DNA from: Staphylothermus hellenicus DSM 12710
GTDB taxonomy: Archaea > Thermoproteota > Thermoprotei_A > Sulfolobales > Desulfurococcaceae
DNA: 32,000 nucleotides
Reading direction: 5' to 3'
Assembly (NCBI RefSeq): GCF_000092465.1
Contig: NC_014205.1
Location: 810,001-842,000 of the forward strand
Of the stretch, positions 3,961 through 23,488 are shown one piece after another; position 1 is the first letter of the stretch, and every line of letters begins with the position of its first letter. The notes under the pieces are model-generated. The model searched no databases. It saw only the letters and a program-made list of their open reading frames with translations, and had not been told where the DNA came from. The position numbers and the translations under genes are program-made.

Positions 3961-4762
3961 ACAATTAGAAACTAAGCAATGAGTTCATAAGCTTCTATTA
4001 TGGGAGATACCACATTAATTTCCTCTTATGTTAAACAAAAACAAATATGCAAACATATAGAATAATACTGTAGGGACAAAAGGCAAGACATAAAATACAA
4101 TAATAGATAACGATAAAGAAAAATTGAAGCCAAATAACATTAGACATGAAACAATTAGGGAAAGCCAAGATCATTACTGGAGTAGGGAAGATTGATTTGG
4201 AGTATCAAAGTATTTATGAAATTAGCTATGAAAATCGTCCTTAATATAATATTGGTAAGATTCCCAAAACAATTGCAAGGTGCCACGGCTTAGGAAGGCC
4301 ACGATAACCTTAAGAAACATTGACTATATGTATAATTCTGGAGATTAATAAGTAGTTCTAGGGCTATACCCCATTATATCTAGCTGTCTCAATATTAACT
4401 ACTGCTTGTTCCCCTCTGGAAAGGGTCTTCACTGTTCTATTTTTCCTACTTATTTAATTAACTATGAACTATTCTTTAAAGCTGACATAGGAATTAAAAA
4501 TATTTACACATTAATATTAAGACTGCAAGTTTATGAGTCAAGAACTTATATATTCATCTTTATTCCCAGTTGTAGGTACATATCTCTTTGTCATTACTGC
4601 AGTCTTATCTCACAATCCATTAGTATATTTGCAGACAATCAACGTTACAGACCTATTAAATAGTAAATATTAATTTCACTTCATCGATACAACTTTTGAT
4701 TATCCAATAGAATTCTGTAATGAGAAAAAGTTTTTTAGTTATTTTAACTATTTTTAACACAC

Positions 4763-4773
4763 GGAGGAGGTGG
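4763..4773 (+). promoter_or_regulatory. Shine-Dalgarno box GGAGGAGGTGG, 4 nt upstream of a TTG start
   Basis: The sequence acGGAGGAGGTGGttttTTG is complementary to the canonical 16S rRNA 3' end (CCUCC core). Confidence 0.5.
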
Positions 4774-4777
4774 TTTT

Positions 4778-5290
4778 TTGTCTACTAGATTTGATACACT
4801 TTATAAAAAGGATATACAGTCCTTTAGAGTTGAAAAGGGAGGTTATAAGGAGCTAAGATATAAAATTCCCTATGCTTCTTCGGTAACAATAAGGGTTTCT
4901 GCTACACATCCAGTATTGCTAAATATAGCCGGTCCCCATATAGAGCAAGCAGAGATAACAGGTACTAGGGAATATAAATTTACTGCCAATCCAGGTAGTG
5001 AGGCATATATTAAATTCCAAGGTAAATCAGGCTTTTTCGCTAAACCCTCAGATGTCACTATTGAAGTAGAACTGTATACGTCTAAGGATGCTATAAAAGT
5101 GTCTGAGGAGCTAACGAATTTATTAGAGGTTCTCAAGGAGCTGGGCAAGGACTATTATGACTTAAATAAGGAGCATGTACAGGATGTGCTTAAGAGAATA
5201 GTTAATGTATGGAAGATCCTAGATAATGAAACGAAGTCTAAAGCCAAGGAGTTGATGGCTCTAGCCAAGAAATATGAGTCAGGATCATAA
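4778..5290 (+). CDS. Hypothetical protein (beta-rich N-domain plus helical C-terminal tail)
   Basis: 170-aa ORF with a strong SD and a TTG start. Composition is non-repetitive. No motif was recognised. Confidence 0.65.
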   Translation: MSTRFDTLYKKDIQSFRVEKGGYKELRYKIPYASSVTIRVSATHPVLLNIAGPHIEQAEITGTREYKFTANPGSEAYIKFQGKSGFFAKPSDVTIEVELYTSKDAIKVSEELTNLLEVLKELGKDYYDLNKEHVQDVLKRIVNVWKILDNETKSKAKELMALAKKYESGS

Positions 5291-5355
5291 CTTTACAAAT
5301 ATTCTTACTATACATGATTCTTTTGTCCATCAACTACTTCGTAATATTTGTAAGG
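5291..5355 (+). other. Inverted repeat forming a 13-bp stem (one G-U) with a 39-nt loop, directly after the stop codon of 4778..5290
   Basis: 5291-5303 cttTACAAATATT pairs with 5343-5355 AATATTTGTAagg. I checked the pairing base by base. Confidence 0.35.
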
Positions 5356-5517
5356 TTGTAGATGAAAGGCTATGTGTGCCCGGCACGGGGCCTGAAGACT
5401 TCTCATATAATTAAGGAGGGGAAGTTGTACGAGTATTCATCACATCTAAAAATATTTCAAGGAAACTACGTGTCTTAAACTAAGATTACTATTTTATCTA
5501 AGCATGGTGACTGTTAA

Positions 5518-5897
5518 TTATTGAGCTGATTGTATAGTAGGTGTATATTTTGCCAAGTATTTTTCAGTTAGGCCTCCAACTATTGGTAACTTGTATCTTT
5601 CTCCTTTTAAAGCCTTCAATATGCATATGATCGCTGTTATAATAGCTAATATCCATACGAGCCAGCTTAGAAAAACAAAAGACTAAACCGATAAATGGTA
5701 TTAATGCTAGGGCATCCAGAATAATTATTATGATCGTGTATCCAAGGAATGTTATAGTTGACTGCATTGCATGAAATCTGACAAATCCGCTTTTCTTTTC
5801 AAGAACTAAGAACTAAGAACAATATACCAGTAATCCATCCAAGAACATATGATAGAGCTGCCTCAACATTTTCTCCAATACCAAGAGATGTCTCCAT
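5518..5897 (-). pseudogene. DUF4870-like small membrane protein gene, disrupted by a 7-bp tandem duplication and a second +/-1 frameshift
   Basis: From ATG 5897 the reading is METSLGIGENVEAALSYVLGWITGILFLVLSS*. Removing one GTTCTTA unit restores ...ILFLVLEKKSGFVRFHAMQSTITFLGYT..., which joins track ORF 5564..5767. After IPFIGLV, a third frame reads LSWLVWILAIITAIICILKALKGERYKLPIVGGLTEKYLAKYTPTIQSAQ* (stop 5518-5520). The joined sequence matches the DUF4870 consensus as I remember it. Confidence 0.75.
5801..5820. repeat. 7-bp tandem repeat aagaact x about 2.9 copies
   Basis: Read directly: aagaact aagaact aagaac. Two copies would keep the DUF4870 frame open. Three copies shift it into a TGA. 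Confidence 0.9.
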
Positions 5898-6156
5898 AAT
5901 ATATCTAACTCCAACTATATATAATTGGATAAAACAATATTATCCAGACCTAAAATACTTTTCCAAAACTTTAAATATAATAATCAGATCCCGACAGTTT
6001 CAATACCCAAGAAAGGGGAAGCTTGTGCAAAACAATAATAACTAATCAAAAATAATGCAGAGATAATACTACCTTACATTATGTTTGTTTAAAGATTTGT
6101 AGAAATAAAAAATTGGATTTATTCTGCAATAATGTTTTTGAATGGTTTCTATAAGA

Positions 6157-6588
6157 TTATTTTCGGAGTAATCCTATTATTAATCCTATTATTACTCCCG
6201 CTGTTACCGGCCCTATTGTTAGTATTCCCAGTGTTTGTATGAAGCCCCATATTATTGGCCATAACGCCTTGGCTTGCGATCCCATGTTTACTAACCAATC
6301 TTCTATGCTTCCGCCAATGCTCCAAACAGATAATATGGCGCCTAGTATTACTATTCCTAGAAGTGCTAGCAAGTATTTTAAGACTTTAACAGAGAAATAG
6401 CCAAACGCTAAACCCAGTAGGAACTGTATCGTGATTGTAATTAGGACTTTAGGATCGCTTAGCAGAGTATTAGTTATGTTTATAGAAGTAGTATTGGTAG
6501 TATTGTTTGCTGCAAACACATATGTTGCAGAAACCATGAGAGCAACAATAATTACAAGTATAAATAGTGAAAGATTTATTCTACTCAA
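6157..6588 (-). CDS. Membrane protein, FUN14-like, with an N-glycosylation-sequon-rich stalk
   Basis: 143-aa ORF. It has an N-terminal signal/anchor (LSLFILVIIVALMVSATYVFA) and an NNTTNTTSINITNT sequon cluster. Glycine-zipper TM helices (LLGLAFGYFSVKVLKYLLALLGIVILG ... GVIIGLIIGLLRK) resemble FUN14. Confidence 0.55.
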   Translation of the reverse strand: MSRINLSLFILVIIVALMVSATYVFAANNTTNTTSINITNTLLSDPKVLITITIQFLLGLAFGYFSVKVLKYLLALLGIVILGAILSVWSIGGSIEDWLVNMGSQAKALWPIIWGFIQTLGILTIGPVTAGVIIGLIIGLLRK

Positions 6589-6638
6589 TTTTTCCCACCT
6601 ATTTACTGTATCTTTATTTACTATGTATATATGTATAT

Positions 6639-7607
6639 TTATGGTATTATATAATCTTTGTAATATTCTATAGTCTTCTTCAATCCCTTTTCCAACGATA
6701 CTGTGGGTTTCCAGCCTAGATACTTTACGGCTTTACCAATATCTGCTAAACTATGCTTGATATCTCCTTCCCTAGGCTTATCATGTATTATTTCAACCTC
6801 TTCTCTACCCATATATTTTCTGAGAATATCTGCTAGTTCTCTCACTGTAATATTTGATCCGCAGCCAATATTATATGATCCCGTAATCTTTGATTCTAAC
6901 GCTAATAAATTGGCTGCGGCAACATCCTCTACATATACGAAGTCTCTTGTTTGAAGCCCGTCGCCATGTATTATTAATGGTTTCCCATGTATTAGGTTGT
7001 TTATGAAAACATATACTACTCCAGAATATGGTCCAGGCCTCATCCTCGGACCATAGACGTTGAAGTATCTGAGCGATATAGTTGATAAACCATAGTTTTC
7101 CATATAGGTATTTACAAGTATTTCTCCAGCAAGTTTTGTTGCTCCATATAGGTTTTTAGGAGATAATGGATGATCCTCATCTATGGGCAGATACTGTGGG
7201 TCGCCATATACTGCGGCACTAGAAGCATACACAAACCTCTCAACATCATGTCTTCTACTCATCTCTAACAAGTTAAACGTCCCCTGAACATTAATGCTGA
7301 AACCACTATTTGGATCACGGTAAACCTCGTCAACACCTACGAGAGCAGCTAAATGAACTACTCCGTAAAACCTGTATTTCCTAAACAATTCATTGAGCAA
7401 TACAGTATCCCGTATATCACCCTTAACAAGGATTATATCATCAATAATATTTGACAAATTACTGGGAGAACCATACATTAAATTATCTAGAACAACAACC
7501 CTATAACCCTTAGAACATAGTTTCTCAACGGTCCAACTACCAATAAATCCAGCACCACCAGTTACGAGAACATATTCGTTATTAGAACCCATAATAGAAC
7601 ACACCAT
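6639..7607 (-). CDS. NAD-dependent epimerase/dehydratase (extended SDR, UDP-sugar 4-epimerase-like)
   Basis: Contains the Rossmann motif VLVTGGAGFIGS, the YASSAAVYG serine region and the catalytic YGATK (YxxxK). Start is ATG 7607, or more likely the second ATG at 7592 (MGSNNEYVLVTGG). Confidence 0.85.
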   Translation of the reverse strand: MVCSIMGSNNEYVLVTGGAGFIGSWTVEKLCSKGYRVVVLDNLMYGSPSNLSNIIDDIILVKGDIRDTVLLNELFRKYRFYGVVHLAALVGVDEVYRDPNSGFSINVQGTFNLLEMSRRHDVERFVYASSAAVYGDPQYLPIDEDHPLSPKNLYGATKLAGEILVNTYMENYGLSTISLRYFNVYGPRMRPGPYSGVVYVFINNLIHGKPLIIHGDGLQTRDFVYVEDVAAANLLALESKITGSYNIGCGSNITVRELADILRKYMGREEVEIIHDKPREGDIKHSLADIGKAVKYLGWKPTVSLEKGLKKTIEYYKDYIIP

Positions 7608-7720
7608 TTATTCTAAATAATCCCACCAACTACATAGTTAAGCAGTCATAGATAAATAAGCTATTAAACAATTAAACAAATATGATCTAAGCATGCTATA
7701 TAATTAGTGGTGTTTACTGG

Positions 7721-8353
7721 TTGGGTTTGCTGATTTGTTTATTCGGCGCTGATGGTTCCGGCAAGACCAGTATTGCAAGATACCTTGCAAAATATCTACG
7801 TAGCCAAGGTTGGAATACAAGTATTGCTTGGCTACGCGGCTCCCATACCTTAGCCTCTATACTAGCTAGGCTTCTCTCGAGATTCAATGTTTTCAGAGGA
7901 AATTGTAATCCATACTATCGTATCTGTATATCTTCAAGCATGAGGAAACCATGGATCTTTATTGAGTTCATTTCCATCCTACCCATTATTTTCTTAAAAT
8001 TCCTGGCCCCAAAGCTTTTGGGGCGTATAGTTGTTGCTGAGCGTTGCCCAATAGATTTCCTTGTATGGCTCATAATAACTCTCAGGGATCAACGGGTTAT
8101 CCACAGCTTTTGGGGGAGGACAACATTATCTCTTGCATTATCAATATGTGATAAAATAATCTATATCAGAGCTGATCAAGAGGCTTTATTGTCTAGGAGG
8201 AAGGGGTTTGAGGAGGAATACTTGATCCCTGCCCAGCTACGCATATATGATCAGTTGGCTGAATGGCTGAGAACACAATATATTGATACAACAAATAAAA
8301 CAGTTGCTGAATCTATCTCCGAAATCATTAGAATAATTGGTGATATAAAATGA
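7721..8353 (+). CDS. P-loop NTPase / kinase-like protein (thymidylate-kinase-like fold) with a hydrophobic insert
   Basis: Walker A LFGADGSGKTS lies at the N-terminus. A hydrophobic stretch (WIFIEFISILPIIFLKFLAP) follows. A TATATAAT box at 7697-7704 suggests a leaderless or short-leader start (TTG 7721 or TTG 7727). The stop overlaps the next gene's start (ATGA). Confidence 0.65.
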   Translation: MGLLICLFGADGSGKTSIARYLAKYLRSQGWNTSIAWLRGSHTLASILARLLSRFNVFRGNCNPYYRICISSSMRKPWIFIEFISILPIIFLKFLAPKLLGRIVVAERCPIDFLVWLIITLRDQRVIHSFWGRTTLSLALSICDKIIYIRADQEALLSRRKGFEEEYLIPAQLRIYDQLAEWLRTQYIDTTNKTVAESISEIIRIIGDIK

Positions 8354-9219
8354 AAAATAATGCTTTCAGAATAGTATATGACGCCATAGTATGGGGGGAG
8401 AAGAAAGTATTAGATGAAGAGGATTTAGAGAAATGCATAGATATCGCAGCTAAGAACAAGGTACTACTACATTTTCTAAGAACAATGAATATAGACGGCG
8501 ATATCAGGGTTCGCCGAGAGAATATGTATAAAGAATTTCTTAGAAGTCTACGTTTAGTAGCTAATGCTTTGAAAGATATAGATCATGTCTTCATAAAGCT
8601 GCGTAAGCCTGTCAAGTATGTTCCATCAGATATAGACGTGCTTTTGAGGAGGAGAGATATTGGTAAAGCTTATAATAGGCTGAGAAGCCTTGGCTTCAAA
8701 GCCGAGGTCGTGGAACCATATACTTTAACGGTAACACGTGGAAGCATCATTGTCGACTTATATGTTCATCCAACAATGGGGGACATAATCTATATTGATG
8801 GCGAGAAGCTTATCGAGTATCGAGAAAATGGGTTCTTCGAGGACATAGAGATACCCGTACTGGAGAAACCTGTTGAAGCACTAATTGTTGCTGCACATGC
8901 AGTATATAAGGAGAGAATATATACGCTCAACGATTACATGACGATAAAGATGTGGGGATCCAGTAAAACAGTTAGGCTTGCCAAGGATTTTAAATGCTTA
9001 GATGCTGTCCGAGAAGCTCTCAGCATAAACGATATGGTTGGAAGAGGAGATCTAATTCTACCATATAAGATACCATTAAATAAATGGATCATACTGTTCA
9101 CACGCAAGATTTTCAGCGACAATGTAACTAGGGGAACTATTCTGAGAACTAGTAGGGCTTTAAGAGATCCAAGGTTTGGGAAAATGGTTAAATCTAAACT
9201 ATTCAGGGAAACATATTAG
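8350..9219 (+). CDS. Uncharacterised nucleotidyltransferase family protein (NTP_transf_5 / PF14907-like)
   Basis: 289-aa ORF. The segment FIKLRKPVKYVPSDIDVLLRRRDIGKAYNRLRSLGF ... VDLYVHPT ... AAHAVYKE matches the layout of that family from memory (KG..., sDiDlLv, L...Gy, vdlH, H..kh). It has a 4-nt overlap with the upstream P-loop gene. Confidence 0.65.
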   Translation: MKNNAFRIVYDAIVWGEKKVLDEEDLEKCIDIAAKNKVLLHFLRTMNIDGDIRVRRENMYKEFLRSLRLVANALKDIDHVFIKLRKPVKYVPSDIDVLLRRRDIGKAYNRLRSLGFKAEVVEPYTLTVTRGSIIVDLYVHPTMGDIIYIDGEKLIEYRENGFFEDIEIPVLEKPVEALIVAAHAVYKERIYTLNDYMTIKMWGSSKTVRLAKDFKCLDAVREALSINDMVGRGDLILPYKIPLNKWIILFTRKIFSDNVTRGTILRTSRALRDPRFGKMVKSKLFRETY

Positions 9220-9244
9220 AAACAATTATAGAGAGGAATGACTA

Positions 9245-10447
9245 CTATTTATTCTTCCCGCCTCTGATCATTTCATAGTACATATATGCTTTATTACGAG
9301 TATGCGGGTAGCCTAGTGATACTTGTTGCCACCCAATTATTTTATCGTTGCTCCACAGCTCTGCTTCCACCCCGCCATCATCTTCTCTTATATTAACTTT
9401 AAACCTGTATCCTAGTCTCTCCGCTTCTATTGGTGCTAAACCTATTGTTCTTATACTTATCTCGCCTATCTCCTCATATATCCTTGGTATTACTCCTAAG
9501 AACTCTTTTTCTTCGCCCACAATATTTGATGCAATTATTTCAGTATACTCTCCAGCAATGAATCCGAGTGGTCTATAAAGCGTTTTCCCGGATACATAGT
9601 CTTTTGATAAAGCACAGTCTCCTAATGCATACATGTCTCTATAGCCCTGGACTCTTCCATGATCATCTATTATTATTGCTCCACGCTGCATAGGTATATT
9701 TGTGTTCCTCAATAATTCCGTGTTTGGCCTGATACCTGTGGATAAAACTATGTGGTCTACACGTATTATTCCATGATCCGTTCTTAGAGCTTCTGCTCTA
9801 GAAGTACCCAGTACTTCTTCGACTCTTGTAGCCGTATATATTTTCACGCCTATTCCTCTCAGATATTCTTCAACATGTTTAGCCAAATCCTCTACTAGCA
9901 GTCCAGGGATCAAGCGATCCTTTATCTCTATTAGAGATACCTTATACCCTTTAAGCCTGAGAAGACCTGCAAGGCTACAACCTATGACCCCACCGCCTAT
10001 AATAGCGATCCTGCTGCCTCTTGGAAGACCCACTAGTCTCCAATAATCGTTTATGCTGTGATAAGTTGATACATTTGTTTTATCTAAGCCATTAATAGGG
10101 GGTATGAATGGTTTTCCGCCGAGGGCTAAGACTAGTTTATCGTAGCTAATAGTCTTTGATGAGCCAAGCTGATCAACTACTCTAACACTTCTCTCATCAA
10201 CCCTAACCTCTACTGCACGATGTTTTCTCAGAAACCTAACATTCCTGTCTAATAAATAATCTGTAACACCTATTATGAGTCCATCAGCGTTTCTTGCTCT
10301 TAGACAACTTATTAGTCTATGCCTAGAATATGGGGGCCACTCCTCCGATACAATTGTTATTTTCTCGCCTGGAACTCCTTTCCCTATAAGTTTGTAAGCA
10401 GTGTATAATCCAGCGATTCCTCCTCCGAGAATCAATATGTTATCCAT
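9245..10447 (-). CDS. FAD-dependent pyridine nucleotide-disulfide oxidoreductase family protein (ferredoxin/rubredoxin-NAD(P)+ reductase-like); putative AorC-like subunit
   Basis: Two dinucleotide-binding motifs are present: ILILGGGIAGLYTA (FAD) and IAIIGGGVIGCSLAG (NAD(P)). The GD motif is YALGDCA. It is 400 aa, on the same strand as the Fe-S gene and 24 nt downstream of it. Confidence 0.85.
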   Translation of the reverse strand: MDNILILGGGIAGLYTAYKLIGKGVPGEKITIVSEEWPPYSRHRLISCLRARNADGLIIGVTDYLLDRNVRFLRKHRAVEVRVDERSVRVVDQLGSSKTISYDKLVLALGGKPFIPPINGLDKTNVSTYHSINDYWRLVGLPRGSRIAIIGGGVIGCSLAGLLRLKGYKVSLIEIKDRLIPGLLVEDLAKHVEEYLRGIGVKIYTATRVEEVLGTSRAEALRTDHGIIRVDHIVLSTGIRPNTELLRNTNIPMQRGAIIIDDHGRVQGYRDMYALGDCALSKDYVSGKTLYRPLGFIAGEYTEIIASNIVGEEKEFLGVIPRIYEEIGEISIRTIGLAPIEAERLGYRFKVNIREDDGGVEAELWSNDKIIGWQQVSLGYPHTRNKAYMYYEMIRGGKNK

Positions 10448-20082: not shown

Positions 20083-20352
20083 ATGAGGGGGTTTATGTGT
20101 TCACGAGTAGTCCCATTACGACTGAGTAGTGAGATCTTGGAGAAGATTGATAAGCTTGTTGAATTAGGTGTTTTCAGGTCTAGGAGTGAAGCATTAAGGA
20201 AGCTTATCAGGGTGGGGCTTAGAAACTATGAAAGAATAACTAGGATTGCTAAAGCTGTCGAGCTATTATTTGAGATGGAGAAGGAGAGGGGGATTCCTAT
20301 AAGGCTAGATGGTGCGTTAAAGCAGTTGCTTGAAGAAAGAGGTTCTATATAG
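20083..20352 (+). CDS. vapB: Ribbon-helix-helix (CopG/VapB-type) antitoxin
   Basis: The 89-aa ORF contains VPLRLSSEILEKIDKLVELGVFRSRSEALRKLIRVG, a classic RHH strand-helix-helix. A PIN remnant follows directly. An internal start at ATG 20095 is possible. Confidence 0.75.
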   Translation: MRGFMCSRVVPLRLSSEILEKIDKLVELGVFRSRSEALRKLIRVGLRNYERITRIAKAVELLFEMEKERGIPIRLDGALKQLLEERGSI

Positions 20353-20822
20353 TGGATACTCTAGACCTATAGGATCTAGGCATCAGGATGCTTGGAAGGT
20401 TTTGTCTAGGGAGGAGAATAAGATCGTTTTGAGGGATCGTATTAGCTGAACTAGCCAGTATTCTAGCAAGACGGCCTGAGATATTCTATCTTCTAAGAGA
20501 TAAACTTGAACTAAGCAGAGAAGAAACAATTATAGCTCTACTCATCTACATCCTTAGAAGATTCAATATTAGATATAAAGCTGTGAAAGGTGCGTTAAAG
20601 TATCCCTTACTCGGAGAAATATATAAGCCTCTTGCAACAGCAATCAAGTTATCAACACAACTTAATCTCCGAACCCTAGACATGCTTCATGTATCCTATG
20701 CTAAACTATTAAGAAACCAAGGCGAGCACGTACGTAAAATAGTCACAGCAGACACAGATTTCGAGAAAGTTGCTGATAAGATTAGAAAACTAATAAATCT
20801 AGATGTTGAACTAATTTCTTAA
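20352..20822 (+). pseudogene. vapC: PIN-domain (VapC-type) toxin gene, disrupted
   Basis: The frame of track ORF 20583..20822 (LRTLDMLHVSYAKLL...IVTADTDF, PIN C-terminal acidic motifs) extends upstream as GIVLAELASILARRPEIFYLL... It opens with VDTLDL at GTG 20352 (PIN N-terminal Asp motif). The frame is interrupted by TAG 20370-20372 and TGA 20430-20432. Between them a different frame reads ...SRHQDAWKVLSREENKIVL. Confidence 0.6.
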
Positions 20823-20922: not shown

Positions 20923-22293
20923 ATGACCATTTATCCTATAATTTCCATCAAAGATTTCGGGCCATTCAAACAAGCCAGCCTAGAGCTTAAACCACTAACC
21001 CTGCTCATAGGCAGGAACAGTGTAGGTAAATCCATGCTAGCATACTTAGTCTGGATCCTAGCCTCACTAATACCTGATCCCGAGATTATAGGAGAAATAG
21101 CTGTGGAGAAGGGTGTGGATAGGCTAGCTACTGAGACAATTAGTGAGATTAGAAAGGGAGGGAATGTATCTGATAAAATTAAGAACCTGCTCAAGATACA
21201 TATCGATGCATTACCAGAAGCTATATCTGTAAGTCTTAAAGAATCACTTCAGAGAACCTTTACAACAAACTTAGAAGAACTGATCAGGAAAGGAGCCAGT
21301 CAGGCCATAATAGGCGTTGAAGCCTTAAGGTCTTCTCTAAAATTTGCAATAGAGGATAATGAGGTTAAGGTCATAGATCATAAACCCTACATGGAATTCT
21401 TCGAAAAACTGAGAATAAGCGTTCCAAGACCACGTATATTAAGGGTAACCTATGTGGAGAAAGGGCAGGAGAAAAAGATATATGAGGATATAGCTGACAG
21501 CATCGCTGATCTAGTTAAGGCCACATTCAACATGTTTATGAGCTATGTCGTGGAGGCTTTTTACCCCTTATTTTCAGCCACGCTTGCAGCTCTCCTCCCC
21601 GATAGTCGTGCTGGAATTGCTAGGACTCTGCTTAAGCCATATACTCAGCCAGCAATAGCTAAGAAGGTATCATATGCGGATGAAGAGTTCATCAGCTTAT
21701 ATTTTAGACTCGCAGAAATGGTTGAGAGGGGTCTTATAGATTTGGATATGGTGAAGCCTCTGTTCAAGGAGCTGAGCTGTACTCCTGAAGTAGTATTTGA
21801 GCGTGGTGTTTATACAGTTTATATTAATACATGGACTGGTAAGCGTTTACCATTGGCTCAAGCACCCTCAGGTGTGAGAGAGTCTTTAACTGTAGCATTA
21901 GCTCTTGCATCGAGGAAAGAACCATACATTGTCATTGTTGAGGAGCCTGAAGCTCATCTACACCCACGTGCTCAGAGGGTTTTAGCAAGACTCATCGCCC
22001 GATCCATTAATAGTTTACGTAAACATGTCGTTATTACGACTCACAGCGACTACATACTATATGTCCTGAACAACTTGATAACACTCTCACATGATCTTAT
22101 CAAAGCCGAGAAGCTGGGTTATCGGAGAGATGAAGTGTTAAAGCCCGATATGGTTTCAGCATATTTGGTGAGAGCTGAGGATGGGAAAGCTGTTTTGGAT
22201 CGATTAGAGGTAGGTGATGAAGGCATCTCTGAGGATGAGTTCGTAAAAGTGGCTGAAGAGCTTGCTGAGGAGAGGTCTAAAATACTAGCTTAG
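20923..22293 (+). CDS. ABC-type ATPase of the AAA_15/AAA_21 (OLD/PtuA/AriA-like) class, with no fused nuclease domain recognised
   Basis: 456 aa. Walker A is GRNSVGKS (aa 30-37). A largely helical insert of about 280 aa follows. Then come the signature-like QAPSGVRESL, Walker B YIVIVEEPEAHLHP (aa 335-348) and THSDYIL (aa 372-378), followed by a C-terminal tail of about 80 aa. Confidence 0.85.
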   Translation: MTIYPIISIKDFGPFKQASLELKPLTLLIGRNSVGKSMLAYLVWILASLIPDPEIIGEIAVEKGVDRLATETISEIRKGGNVSDKIKNLLKIHIDALPEAISVSLKESLQRTFTTNLEELIRKGASQAIIGVEALRSSLKFAIEDNEVKVIDHKPYMEFFEKLRISVPRPRILRVTYVEKGQEKKIYEDIADSIADLVKATFNMFMSYVVEAFYPLFSATLAALLPDSRAGIARTLLKPYTQPAIAKKVSYADEEFISLYFRLAEMVERGLIDLDMVKPLFKELSCTPEVVFERGVYTVYINTWTGKRLPLAQAPSGVRESLTVALALASRKEPYIVIVEEPEAHLHPRAQRVLARLIARSINSLRKHVVITTHSDYILYVLNNLITLSHDLIKAEKLGYRRDEVLKPDMVSAYLVRAEDGKAVLDRLEVGDEGISEDEFVKVAEELAEERSKILA

Positions 22294-22310
22294 ATCCTGG
22301 ATGATTTGAG

Positions 22311-22670
22311 ATGAGAATAGTGGATCTAGAGGATTTAGCGAGAAAAACTAAATGGATGGAGAAGCATGCTGACAAGCTAATAATAAGTGATGACGGCTAC
22401 AAAGTGATAATTGTCGAGGAAACTAGTAAGCCTAAAACAGATGATGTACGAAAGCTTGACAACACTGTTAACGCCATTAAAAGAGGTTTGCTTAAGAATA
22501 TCCTAGGCTTAAATCCATCAAGAATCATAGCTGTAATACACTCTTTAAAACGCTTAGACTCCATGATATATAGGATGTTGATAAGAAGGAGTAAGTATGA
22601 CACTATATATTGTAAAGCATCATGTAATAGAGAGCTAAACATTATTGTGAAAAGACATAAAATATACTAG
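22311..22670 (+). CDS. Hypothetical 119-aa protein, putative partner of the upstream ATPase
   Basis: Same strand, with a 17-nt gap and an ATG start. It shows an alternating strand/helix pattern (RIVDL, KLIISDDGYKVIIVEETSKPKTDD, SRIIAVIHS, LNIIVKRH). No family was recognised. Confidence 0.6.
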   Translation: MRIVDLEDLARKTKWMEKHADKLIISDDGYKVIIVEETSKPKTDDVRKLDNTVNAIKRGLLKNILGLNPSRIIAVIHSLKRLDSMIYRMLIRRSKYDTIYCKASCNRELNIIVKRHKIY

Positions 22671-22685
22671 AGTAGGTGAATTTTA

Positions 22686-23112
22686 TTGCCCGTGTATTCA
22701 GAGCTCGTAACCCGCAGGGTTGATGAGGCCAGGAGTTGTATTATGGAGCTTAAACGTTTAACCAGTATACCGTTTAAGGAGCTATCTATTGACCAAGTAT
22801 ACTCGATGAGGTATAATATCATAGTTCTTGTCGAGTCATTAGTGTCTGTAGCTGTGCATATTTGGTTGAGGAGTATAATTATAAGCCCAGCCACTATGTA
22901 GAGGCTCTGGAACAACTGGCACGGCAACTAGATCTACAATCACATTGCTTAGAGGATTTAAGGATCTTGTAAGGCTTCGAAACTTATTGGTTCATAGATA
23001 CTGGGTTATTGATGATAAACGTGTATATGAGGATGTTAGGAATAATTTTAGGTGTGTTGAAGAATTATTGGATAGGATTGGTGATAGGTATGGAGGAGAT
23101 CAGGTATTTTAA
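22686..23112 (+). pseudogene. hepT: DUF86/HepT-type HEPN toxin gene, disrupted by two frameshifts
   Basis: The first frame (start 22686) reads MPVYSELVTRRVDEARSCIMELKRL...ESLVSVAVHIW and stops at 22899-22901. A second frame continues LVEEYNYKPSHYVEALEQLARQLDLQSHCLEDLRIL* (stop 22970-22972). A third frame continues DLVRLRNLLVHRYWVIDDKRVYEDVRNNFRCVEELLDRIGDRYGGDQVF* (stop 23110-23112). RNLLVH is the HEPN Rx4H motif. Confidence 0.7.
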
Positions 23113-23488
23113 GATATGTTTAGAAGATGTTGTTGAGAAGCTTAGAGAATACTTTGCATCTAGAGAAGATGTGCTTATAGCTATATTGTTCGGCTCAGCT
23201 CTTAGGAGAAATATTGTGAGAGACATAGATATAGCAGTATATCTAGCCCGTAAAAGCTTAAACAAGATCCTCAGAATGGGTTGGGAGCTCGAAGAAATCC
23301 TCAAAACACCCGTGGATATAGTTCCGCTTGAACAGCTCCCGCCAAAACTTAAGCTGAAAATACTGCTCAGAGGCAAACCCATAATAATTAGGAGCCCATC
23401 AACCTACACAGAAATATTAAAGACAAGTATAGGAGAGTTAGAGGATCTTAAGACTATATATTCTCATAGTGATTTAAAAAAGCTATAA
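23090..23488 (+). CDS. mntA: MntA-type minimal nucleotidyltransferase (antitoxin of HepT)
   Basis: The sequence MEEIRYFKICLEDVVEKLREYFASREDVLIAILFGSALRRNIVRDIDIAVYL carries the GS...DxD pol-beta NTase motif. The track ORF begins at 23009, but that extension overlaps the hepT tail. ATG 23090 overlaps the hepT stop region. Confidence 0.75.
   Translation: MEEIRYFKICLEDVVEKLREYFASREDVLIAILFGSALRRNIVRDIDIAVYLARKSLNKILRMGWELEEILKTPVDIVPLEQLPPKLKLKILLRGKPIIIRSPSTYTEILKTSIGELEDLKTIYSHSDLKKL

Follow-up and report, generated by a model that had tools for sequence, protein, structure and literature searches.

PD-T4-4 of Escherichia coli is carried on a bacterial element of the integrative and conjugative element (ICE)-like type (Vassallo et al. 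2022, PMC9519451). It is treated as combining a PD-(D/E)xK nuclease with a P-loop nucleoside triphosphatase, and higher-order complexes have been described for it (Ragucci et al. 2025, 10.1101/2025.07.10.664194; PMC10952713). WonAB, from the WASA-1 prophage of Vibrio cholerae, joins an OLD-type ATP-binding cassette (ABC) ATPase to a 'variant of the PD-(D/E)xK nuclease fold', and PD-T4-4 has been called its similarly organised relative (PMC12137116). WonAB defends its host only if both of its genes are present, the ATPase motifs are intact and the nuclease retains its lysine, the WonB substitution K71A abolishing defence, and it acts by lysis-independent abortive infection once phage DNA replication has begun (PMC12137116). 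WonB is predicted to dock on the dimerised C-terminal extensions of WonA, and homologues of the system are reported mainly from Gram-negative bacteria (PMC12137116). The WonAB report credits the in silico prediction of the class, an 'OLD-ABC ATPase + novel restriction-enzyme fold' operon, to Krishnan et al. 2020 (PMC12137116). In bacteria, the pairing of an OLD-type ABC ATPase with a restriction-endonuclease-fold protein has already been both described and validated. Here we describe a gene pair of related design in the hyperthermophilic archaeon Staphylothermus hellenicus DSM 12710. It encodes an ABC ATPase of 456 amino acids (aa) and, directly downstream, a protein of 119 aa, referred to below as the partner. 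Both genes lie in a stretch of 32,000 nucleotides (NC_014205.1 of assembly GCF_000092465.1, positions 810,001 to 842,000, forward strand), which we call the window.

We favour, with moderate confidence, the reading that this pair acts against viruses or mobile elements and is a miniature archaeal variant of the PD-T4-4/WonAB class in which an ATPase sensor would act with a minimal restriction-endonuclease-fold effector. A preliminary description of the window had presented the pair as an unnamed defence system. That holds insofar as no partner model of any named system recognises the 119-aa protein, but the class itself is known from PD-T4-4 and WonAB. Among the searches that it had proposed, Pfam and PADLOC gave matches to the ATPase (AAA_15, PD-T4-4_A) and none to the partner. 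What is new here is an archaeal, miniaturised and motif-deviant partner family that is covered by no profile library searched.

The first line of evidence comes from the ATPase. Among its 133 matches in PADLOC, PD-T4-4_A (PDLC04033), a model for which the database gives no curated cut-off, ranks at the top with E = 4.6e-36 and 123 bits. The best stretch aligns residues 300-455 with profile positions 290-455 of 460; since it runs to the profile end, it includes the 80-aa C-terminal tail of the ATPase. Bacterial and prophage relatives score 111-181 bits on the same model, similar to the window protein. Other matches are to AriA (3e-29), GajA (down to 4e-16) and PDC-M29A (5.8e-14). Like PD-T4-4, the locus consists of two genes, one for a P-loop/ABC ATPase (AAA_15) with a length of about 460 aa and one for a partner that is probably of the PD-(D/E)xK class. 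Like both PD-T4-4 and WonAB, it is a two-gene operon with the ATPase first and the partner immediately downstream on the same strand, here after a 17-nucleotide spacer (22294-22310). The likeness to WonAB, taken from its published description, extends to the C-terminal extension of the ATPase and to the small downstream protein, which in the window probably also has a variant PD-(D/E)xK fold.

The second line of evidence comes from the partner, which is a conserved protein. An exhaustive profile search at E <= 1e-3 yielded 52 cluster representatives, whose lengths, with two exceptions, are 70-145 aa. A word-indexed search had found just two near-identical matches, from which the partner might have passed for an orphan; the exhaustive search overturned that view, and the word-indexed search repeated with the family profile gave 10 matches. 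In an alignment of 44 sequences, whose identity to the window protein ranges from 24 to 86%, four columns (D21, E36, H77 and C105) are invariant and five more (H19, A20, E37, D45 and T52) nearly so. The family signature reads K-H-A-D ... (I/V)-E-E-T-x-(R/K)-x-K-x-D-D ... T ... H ... D ... C.

Synteny ties the two genes together. In a metagenome scan, each locus was scored with hidden Markov models (HMMs) of both families, and a locus was counted as assessable when its ATPase reached at least 375 bits and enough downstream DNA was present. The partner lies directly downstream in 7/7 distinct assessable loci; two loci with an ATPase of at least 375 bits have 106 nucleotides of downstream sequence or less and stand outside this count. 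For example, ATPase homologues on a Desulfurococcales metagenome contig, in Pyrobaculum and in Thermofilum pendens are each followed by a homologous gene of 116-132 aa. Seen from the partner side, an ATPase is directly upstream in 8/8 loci. Four of these come from a GTDB scan that used a closer 11-sequence partner alignment and a narrow back-translated pattern. The other four hold distant members at about 30% identity, including one from a Caldarchaeum metagenome-assembled genome; one of the four has a fragmentary ATPase at the contig end. In all complete pairs the partner starts between -22 and +41 nucleotides from the end of the ATPase gene. Pairwise identity matrices of ATPase and partner across 12 distinct pairs correlate at r = 0.85 (Mantel p ~5e-4), so the two proteins diverge in step. 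The pair is a genuine two-gene module with a conserved and strictly syntenic partner. The preliminary description had made its proposal depend on such homologues and such adjacency, both of which were found. Downstream of more distant ATPases, those scoring 230 bits or less (about 27% identity), there is a small gene too, of other types.

The predicted structure of the partner points to its class. Its AlphaFold model is very confident (pLDDT, the predicted score of the local distance difference test, 97; predicted template-modelling score, pTM, 0.90) and has the topology beta-alpha-beta-beta-alpha-beta-alpha-beta-alpha. D21 stands directly ahead of strand 22-25, E36 and E37 end strand 31-37, and K42 and D45 open the next helix. 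In the model, the core looks like the restriction-endonuclease (PD-(D/E)xK) geometry. The top of the Foldseek list against the PDB, with weak matches, consists largely of PD-(D/E)xK enzymes and includes BamHI, EcoO109I, SgrAI, Bse634I, Nt.BspD6I, Card1/Can2 and Mus81, and the list against BFVD includes viral proteins annotated as PD-(D/E)XK and restriction endonucleases. The preliminary description had argued from the small size of the partner to an unnamed mini-effector or adaptor. A short chain need not mean an adaptor or a protein that is no nuclease, and the model of the partner has a restriction-endonuclease-like core. A TOPRIM partner of the DUF4276/RloB type was considered and rejected: no such match appeared, and the weak fold matches are restriction-endonuclease-like, not TOPRIM.

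The strongest support for this assignment comes from comparison with the partners of related ATPases. The genes downstream of more distant ATPases encode plain D...ExK motifs, for example 'KICDCIIF...IVELKS'. In an hhalign comparison over 104 columns, an alignment of 14 such relatives matched the partner family with a probability of 90% and E = 1.8e-6. This places D21 on the D of 'CDC', E36 on the glutamate of ExK (VEET against VELK) and C105 on the conserved cysteine of 'KCxxxL'. Judged by this alignment, the 119-aa family is homologous to the D...ExK partners of related ATPases; D21 is the predicted equivalent of the PD-motif aspartate and E36 of the ExK glutamate, and T38 takes the place of the lysine. 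The acidic strand end noted in the preliminary description is this VEET segment, aligned with the ExK motif of the relatives. Several related partners likewise lack the ExK lysine and carry IEIL, VEIM or CELT instead. Other conserved lysines, K18 (36/44) or K42 (lysine in 30/44, arginine in 5 more), could substitute for it.

The same relatives link the family to named systems. One of them, L019, matches PD-T4-4_B (1e-4), another matches PDDEXK_9 (0.003), and L113 and L025 match PDC-M29B (2.8e-6 and 4.4e-3). Their tested ATPases have PD-T4-4_A as best match, or, for L113, as a close second after AriA. The tie between the 119-aa family and PD-T4-4 on the partner side is indirect, leading through the hhalign match to relatives of which one is recognised by PD-T4-4_B.

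Two observations on individual relatives stand beside these results. The locus L113 (2073-3801 of an IMG/VR contig of viral or prophage origin) encodes a distant ATPase (76 bits) followed by the 143-aa partner with the PDC-M29B match, which also matches the HMM of the 119-aa family weakly (4e-4); on these matches it may be a bridge between the families. The relatives that keep ExK (alignment A5: L019, L020, L021, L024, L027 and L060) show, besides an additional N-terminal region in which two cysteines are conserved, a cysteine on each side of the catalytic aspartate (CDC) and the conserved C-terminal cysteine. It is speculative, from these sequence patterns, that their cysteines form a zinc site replaced in the 119-aa family by H19, H77 and C105.

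Several results weigh against placing the partner in this class. Its best Foldseek matches are not significant against the PDB (E = 0.07) and were counted as non-significant against BFVD (E = 1.8e-3). Pfam, PADLOC, NCBIfam and PHROG models gave no match to the window partner (PADLOC including PD-T4-4_B at E <= 1), and none of the 44 family members matched PD-T4-4_B at E <= 0.1. The ExK lysine position is threonine in 39/44 members and lysine in 1/44; WonB, in contrast, depends on its lysine, the K71A mutant being dead. The larger bacterial and prophage partners of PD-T4-4_A-like ATPases (alignment A6) showed no homology to the family by hhalign. Finally, tblastn of both proteins against plasmid and phage collections, in which archaeal elements are few, found no match. 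Other searches were uninformative: the 44 members gave scattered single, non-significant matches in the family libraries (NucS_C 0.047, DUF2726 0.093, NsnC 0.022), and a PDB sequence-profile search with the family found nothing meaningful. Alignment A6 has a weak, motif-level link alone to the intermediate D...ExK set, and we do not claim one single family for all partners of PD-T4-4_A-like ATPases.

The locus also differs from its closest relatives in ways that define it. Compared with PD-T4-4, the partner has only 119 aa and is not recognised by the PD-T4-4_B model of 190 positions, its family has threonine for the ExK lysine, and the pair sits in a chromosomal toxin-antitoxin islet of a hyperthermophilic archaeon rather than on a bacterial ICE-like element. 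Whereas WonAB homologues are mainly Gram-negative bacterial, the window pair is archaeal. Relative to both systems the D...(D/E)xK triad is incomplete, with D21 and E36 invariant and the lysine position mostly T38. PDC-M29, a candidate system of PADLOC, is similar in that the window ATPase matches PDC-M29A and the related partners L113 and L025 match PDC-M29B; however, members of the 119-aa family have no PDC-M29B match at E <= 0.1.

PARIS (AriA/AriB), Septu (PtuA/PtuB), Gabija (GajA/GajB) and OLD share with the pair an OLD-family ABC ATPase that serves as sensor or scaffold and is coupled to a nuclease. Their effectors, however, are TOPRIM (AriB, OLD, GajA) or HNH (PtuB) proteins, whereas the window partner has a restriction-endonuclease-like predicted fold and the window ATPase has no fused nuclease domain. 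Family-library scans of both window proteins gave no match to TOPRIM, DUF4435 (AriB) or other nuclease domains, and Pfam and PADLOC gave none to HNH of the PtuB type. The matches of the window ATPase to proteins of these systems are mostly confined to the Walker B and H-loop region. The PtuA match covers the Walker B region only; its E-value is 3.3e-5, and the curated cut-off for that model is 500 bits. PtuA, OLD and GajA turn up in the structure and sequence searches with the ATPase.

The ATPase is an OLD-family ABC ATPase in which Walker A, signature-like motif, Walker B, D-loop and H-loop are all present. Invariance was scored on an alignment of 40 homologues with identities of 39-63% to the window ATPase (Table 1); in the Walker B and D-loop segment EEPEAHLHP, every residue (E340, E341, P342, E343, A344, H345, L346, H347 and P348) is invariant. 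The DSRAGIAR segment is the probable Q-loop equivalent of OLD-type ABC ATPases, by likeness to WonA R182 (PMC12137116). Pfam places the protein in AAA_15 (1.1e-25) and AAA_21 (1.1e-17), both above gathering scores, and a PDB sequence-profile search returns OLD nuclease 6p74 first (4.5e-13). No fused TOPRIM, HNH or other nuclease domain was found by the Pfam scan. The AlphaFold model (pLDDT 91) shows an ABC-ATPase head and no long coiled coil, and Foldseek matches it to the heads of Rad50, SMC, RecN, PtuA, OLD and GajA (E ~1e-10, TM-scores 0.33-0.44). Between Walker A and the signature (about 276 residues), the model is helical at 53-120 and 194-283; residues 128-190 form a beta-rich subdomain, and there are strands at 286-310.

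The preliminary description thus proved right about the motifs, whose positions are as it gave them and whose cores are invariant, about the OLD/AAA_15 type and about the lack of a fused TOPRIM or HNH domain. Its 'mostly helical' insert did not fit the beta-rich subdomain and strands of the model. The C-terminal extension is a candidate docking surface for the partner, by analogy with models of WonA and WonB (PMC12137116). The ATPase has 460 homologues at E <= 1e-5. Because the best non-self match in the whole database is only 63% identical, the ATPase appears to be an accessory gene without an orthologue in sequenced sister species.

Table 1. Features of the ATPase-partner locus of S. hellenicus, in window coordinates; residue numbers refer to the encoded protein
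Feature	Position	Strand	Details
RHH (VapB-like) antitoxin gene	20083-20352	+	Pfam RHH_1 7.2e-6
vapC (PIN) pseudogene	20353-20822	+	two in-frame stop codons (three-frame translation)
ABC ATPase gene, 456 aa, ATG start	20923-22293	+	open reading frame (ORF) list; ADI31967.1 / WP_013143165.1, NCBI name 'AAA family ATPase'
ATPase Walker A, GRNSVGKS, residues 30-37 (K36)	21010-21033	+	G30, N32, G35, K36, S37 invariant
ATPase DSRAGIAR, residues 227-234	21601-21624	+	D227, R229, A230, G231, R234 invariant
ATPase signature-like motif QAPSGVRESL, residues 313-322	21859-21888	+	P315, S316, G317, R319, E320 invariant
ATPase Walker B + D-loop, YIVIVEEPEAHLHP, residues 335-348 (E340/E341)	21925-21966	+	starts at Y335
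ATPase H-loop THSDYIL, residues 373-379	22039-22059	+	H374, S375 invariant
ATPase C-terminal extension, residues 380-456	22060-22290	+	two helices, beta hairpin, long terminal helix (AlphaFold)
Partner gene, 119 aa, ATG start	22311-22670	+	ORF list; ADI31968.1 / WP_013143166.1, NCBI name 'hypothetical protein'
Partner KHAD motif, residues 18-21	22362-22373	+	D21 44/44, H19 40/44, A20 40/44, K18 36/44
Partner VEET motif, residues 35-38	22413-22424	+	E36 44/44, E37 43/44, T38 39/44
Partner H77, end of strand 71-77	22539-22541	+	invariant 44/44
Partner C105, directly ahead of last helix	22623-22625	+	invariant 44/44
hepT pseudogene	22686-23112	+	frameshift giving pieces of 71 and 55 aa
mntA-type nucleotidyltransferase gene, intact	23009-23488	+	Pfam Polbeta 1.7e-16, ORF residues 43-129

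The locus lies in a toxin-antitoxin/defence islet of 3.4 kb that has an Opp-type ABC transporter operon on one side and a further transporter operon on the other. Both ORFs and their spacer are where the preliminary description had put them, and Pfam and the ORFs confirm the placement between vapB/vapC and hepT/mntA, to which we add that both toxin genes are degraded. The vapC pseudogene keeps its frame; both stops are near its 5′ end, leaving a C-terminal ORF of 79 aa to which the Pfam PIN match (2.5e-4) is limited. In hepT, the HepT-like Pfam match (1.5e-8) and the motif RNLLVHRY are on the 55-aa piece. The true start of mntA is probably near 23090, at the first methionine ahead of the Polbeta domain. 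The decay of the toxin genes on both sides has left the ATPase-partner pair itself intact. As for markers of an integrated element, the window showed no tRNA, Rfam family or CRISPR-like repeat. A second HEPN (3e-26) and nucleotidyltransferase (1.8e-11) pair, apparently intact, is found at 2235-2964 on the minus strand of the window, in a stretch of low GC content (~32-34% GC, 2-6 kb) where long ORFs are few and several ORFs lack a Pfam match.

The setting recurs in other archaea, where the neighbours of the pair are genes of the PaREP1, PIN/RHH and HEPN/nucleotidyltransferase types, one gene like R.HinP1I and additional ABC-ATPase modules; the islet context suggested by the preliminary description is thus upheld both here and elsewhere. 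Contigs from Desulfurococcales, Pyrobaculum and Thermofilum (L001, L003-L005, L006 and L172) have PaREP1-family genes on both sides of the module, and beside these PIN/AF2212-like, DUF2283 and HEPN/nucleotidyltransferase genes. On the Desulfurococcales metagenome contig L001, three ABC-ATPase modules stand in tandem (3998-9359). The first (452 and 116 aa) belongs to the S. hellenicus ATPase-partner family. The second (464 and 174 aa) has a HEC-01A-like ATPase (6e-28), and its partner, whose sequence opens with 'LVLVEDVYG', gave no Pfam match; the third, an AAA_15/DUF2813 ATPase, is cut by the contig end.

The deviant motif leads to the main rival reading. The pair might be a defence or conflict module whose partner is non-catalytic, an adaptor, a regulator or an antitoxin-like lid, with the ATPase or a recruited factor as the effector. 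The threonine in place of the ExK lysine, with the lysine lost in several relatives too, would fit such a role, and the invariant H77 and C105 together with H19 suggest a metal or ligand site rather than classic catalysis. In WonAB, moreover, how stable the partner is depends on the state of the ATPase (PMC12137116). We regard a non-catalytic partner as unlikely, as D21, E36 and E37 vary little or not at all and conservation of K18, K42 and D45 is high, a pattern typical of an active metal site. Known PD-(D/E)xK enzymes can also do with a lysine that is replaced or has moved elsewhere; BamHI, which heads the PDB matches of the partner model, has E-x-E in place of ExK. We find it distinctly improbable that the two genes make up a selfish module of the toxin-antitoxin or addiction type without an antiviral role, kept in toxin-antitoxin-rich islets by post-segregational killing. 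Such a role would suit its position between two toxin-antitoxin modules here and beside such genes elsewhere, and the Pfam entry for AAA_21 reads 'putative AbiEii toxin, Type IV TA system'. However, the neighbouring toxins have both decayed while the pair is intact, every ATP-hydrolysis motif is kept across the 40 ATPase homologues, and the nearest characterised relatives, PD-T4-4 and WonAB, are bona fide anti-phage systems; toxin-antitoxin and abortive-infection roles can, in addition, coexist.

The heads of Rad50, SMC and RecN at the top of the Foldseek matches of the ATPase could suggest a housekeeping pair for DNA repair or chromosome maintenance, in which a Rad50/SMC-like ABC ATPase would work with a small nuclease. 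We consider this very improbable. The TM-scores reflect the shared ABC fold alone, with no long coiled coil in the model, and the distribution of the ATPase, judged by its best non-self match, appears patchy. The context of the locus is one of toxin-antitoxin, PaREP1 and defence genes, not of repair, and the profile matches point rather to PD-T4-4_A, AriA and GajA, which are defence ATPases. There is, finally, virtually no chance that the 119-aa ORF is no real gene, or the relic of one, beside an ATPase that functions alone. Only the two close homologues from the word-indexed search and the absence of a family-database match speak for it, and it is excluded by the 52 representatives of similar length, the four invariant columns across 44 sequences, the pLDDT of 97 and the strict synteny.

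If the pair is, as we favour, an archaeal member of the PD-T4-4/WonAB class, its mode of action can be sketched after the characterised systems; that the proteins form a complex, that the partner is a nuclease, what triggers it and that the pair gives protection are all inferred. The ABC ATPase would dimerise head-to-head around two ATP molecules and act as sensor and gatekeeper. The 119-aa protein would be a stripped-down PD-(D/E)xK-like effector docked on the ATPase, probably on its C-terminal extension. An infection cue would lead to ATP binding or hydrolysis and thereby to release or activation of the effector, which would then cut nucleic acid and halt propagation of the virus, possibly at the cost of the cell through abortive infection.

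A further proposal concerns how a partner without the lysine but with D, EE and a putative metal site of invariant His and Cys might work. It may be catalytic only when the ABC ATPase supplies a basic residue or clamps the substrate, which would amount to ATP gating in trans, or else it may use zinc-dependent, non-classical chemistry. We think this quite unlikely; if true, the pair would be an archaea-specific nuclease module that is minimal, stable to heat and switched by ATP.

Few antiviral systems have been characterised from hyperthermophilic Thermoproteota. Our findings do not overturn current views, as pairs of an ABC ATPase and a nuclease are a familiar theme in defence. Present defence-finding profiles see a lone ATPase at this locus, and the pair would go uncalled. 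The partner family, with 52 cluster representatives and the pattern KHAD...VEET...H...C, would add an archaeal branch to the PD-T4-4/WonAB class. The partner itself, very small at about 120 aa and confidently modelled, is a candidate effector for structural and biochemical work. It also raises the concrete mechanistic question of how a restriction-endonuclease fold works, or what else it does, without the canonical lysine.

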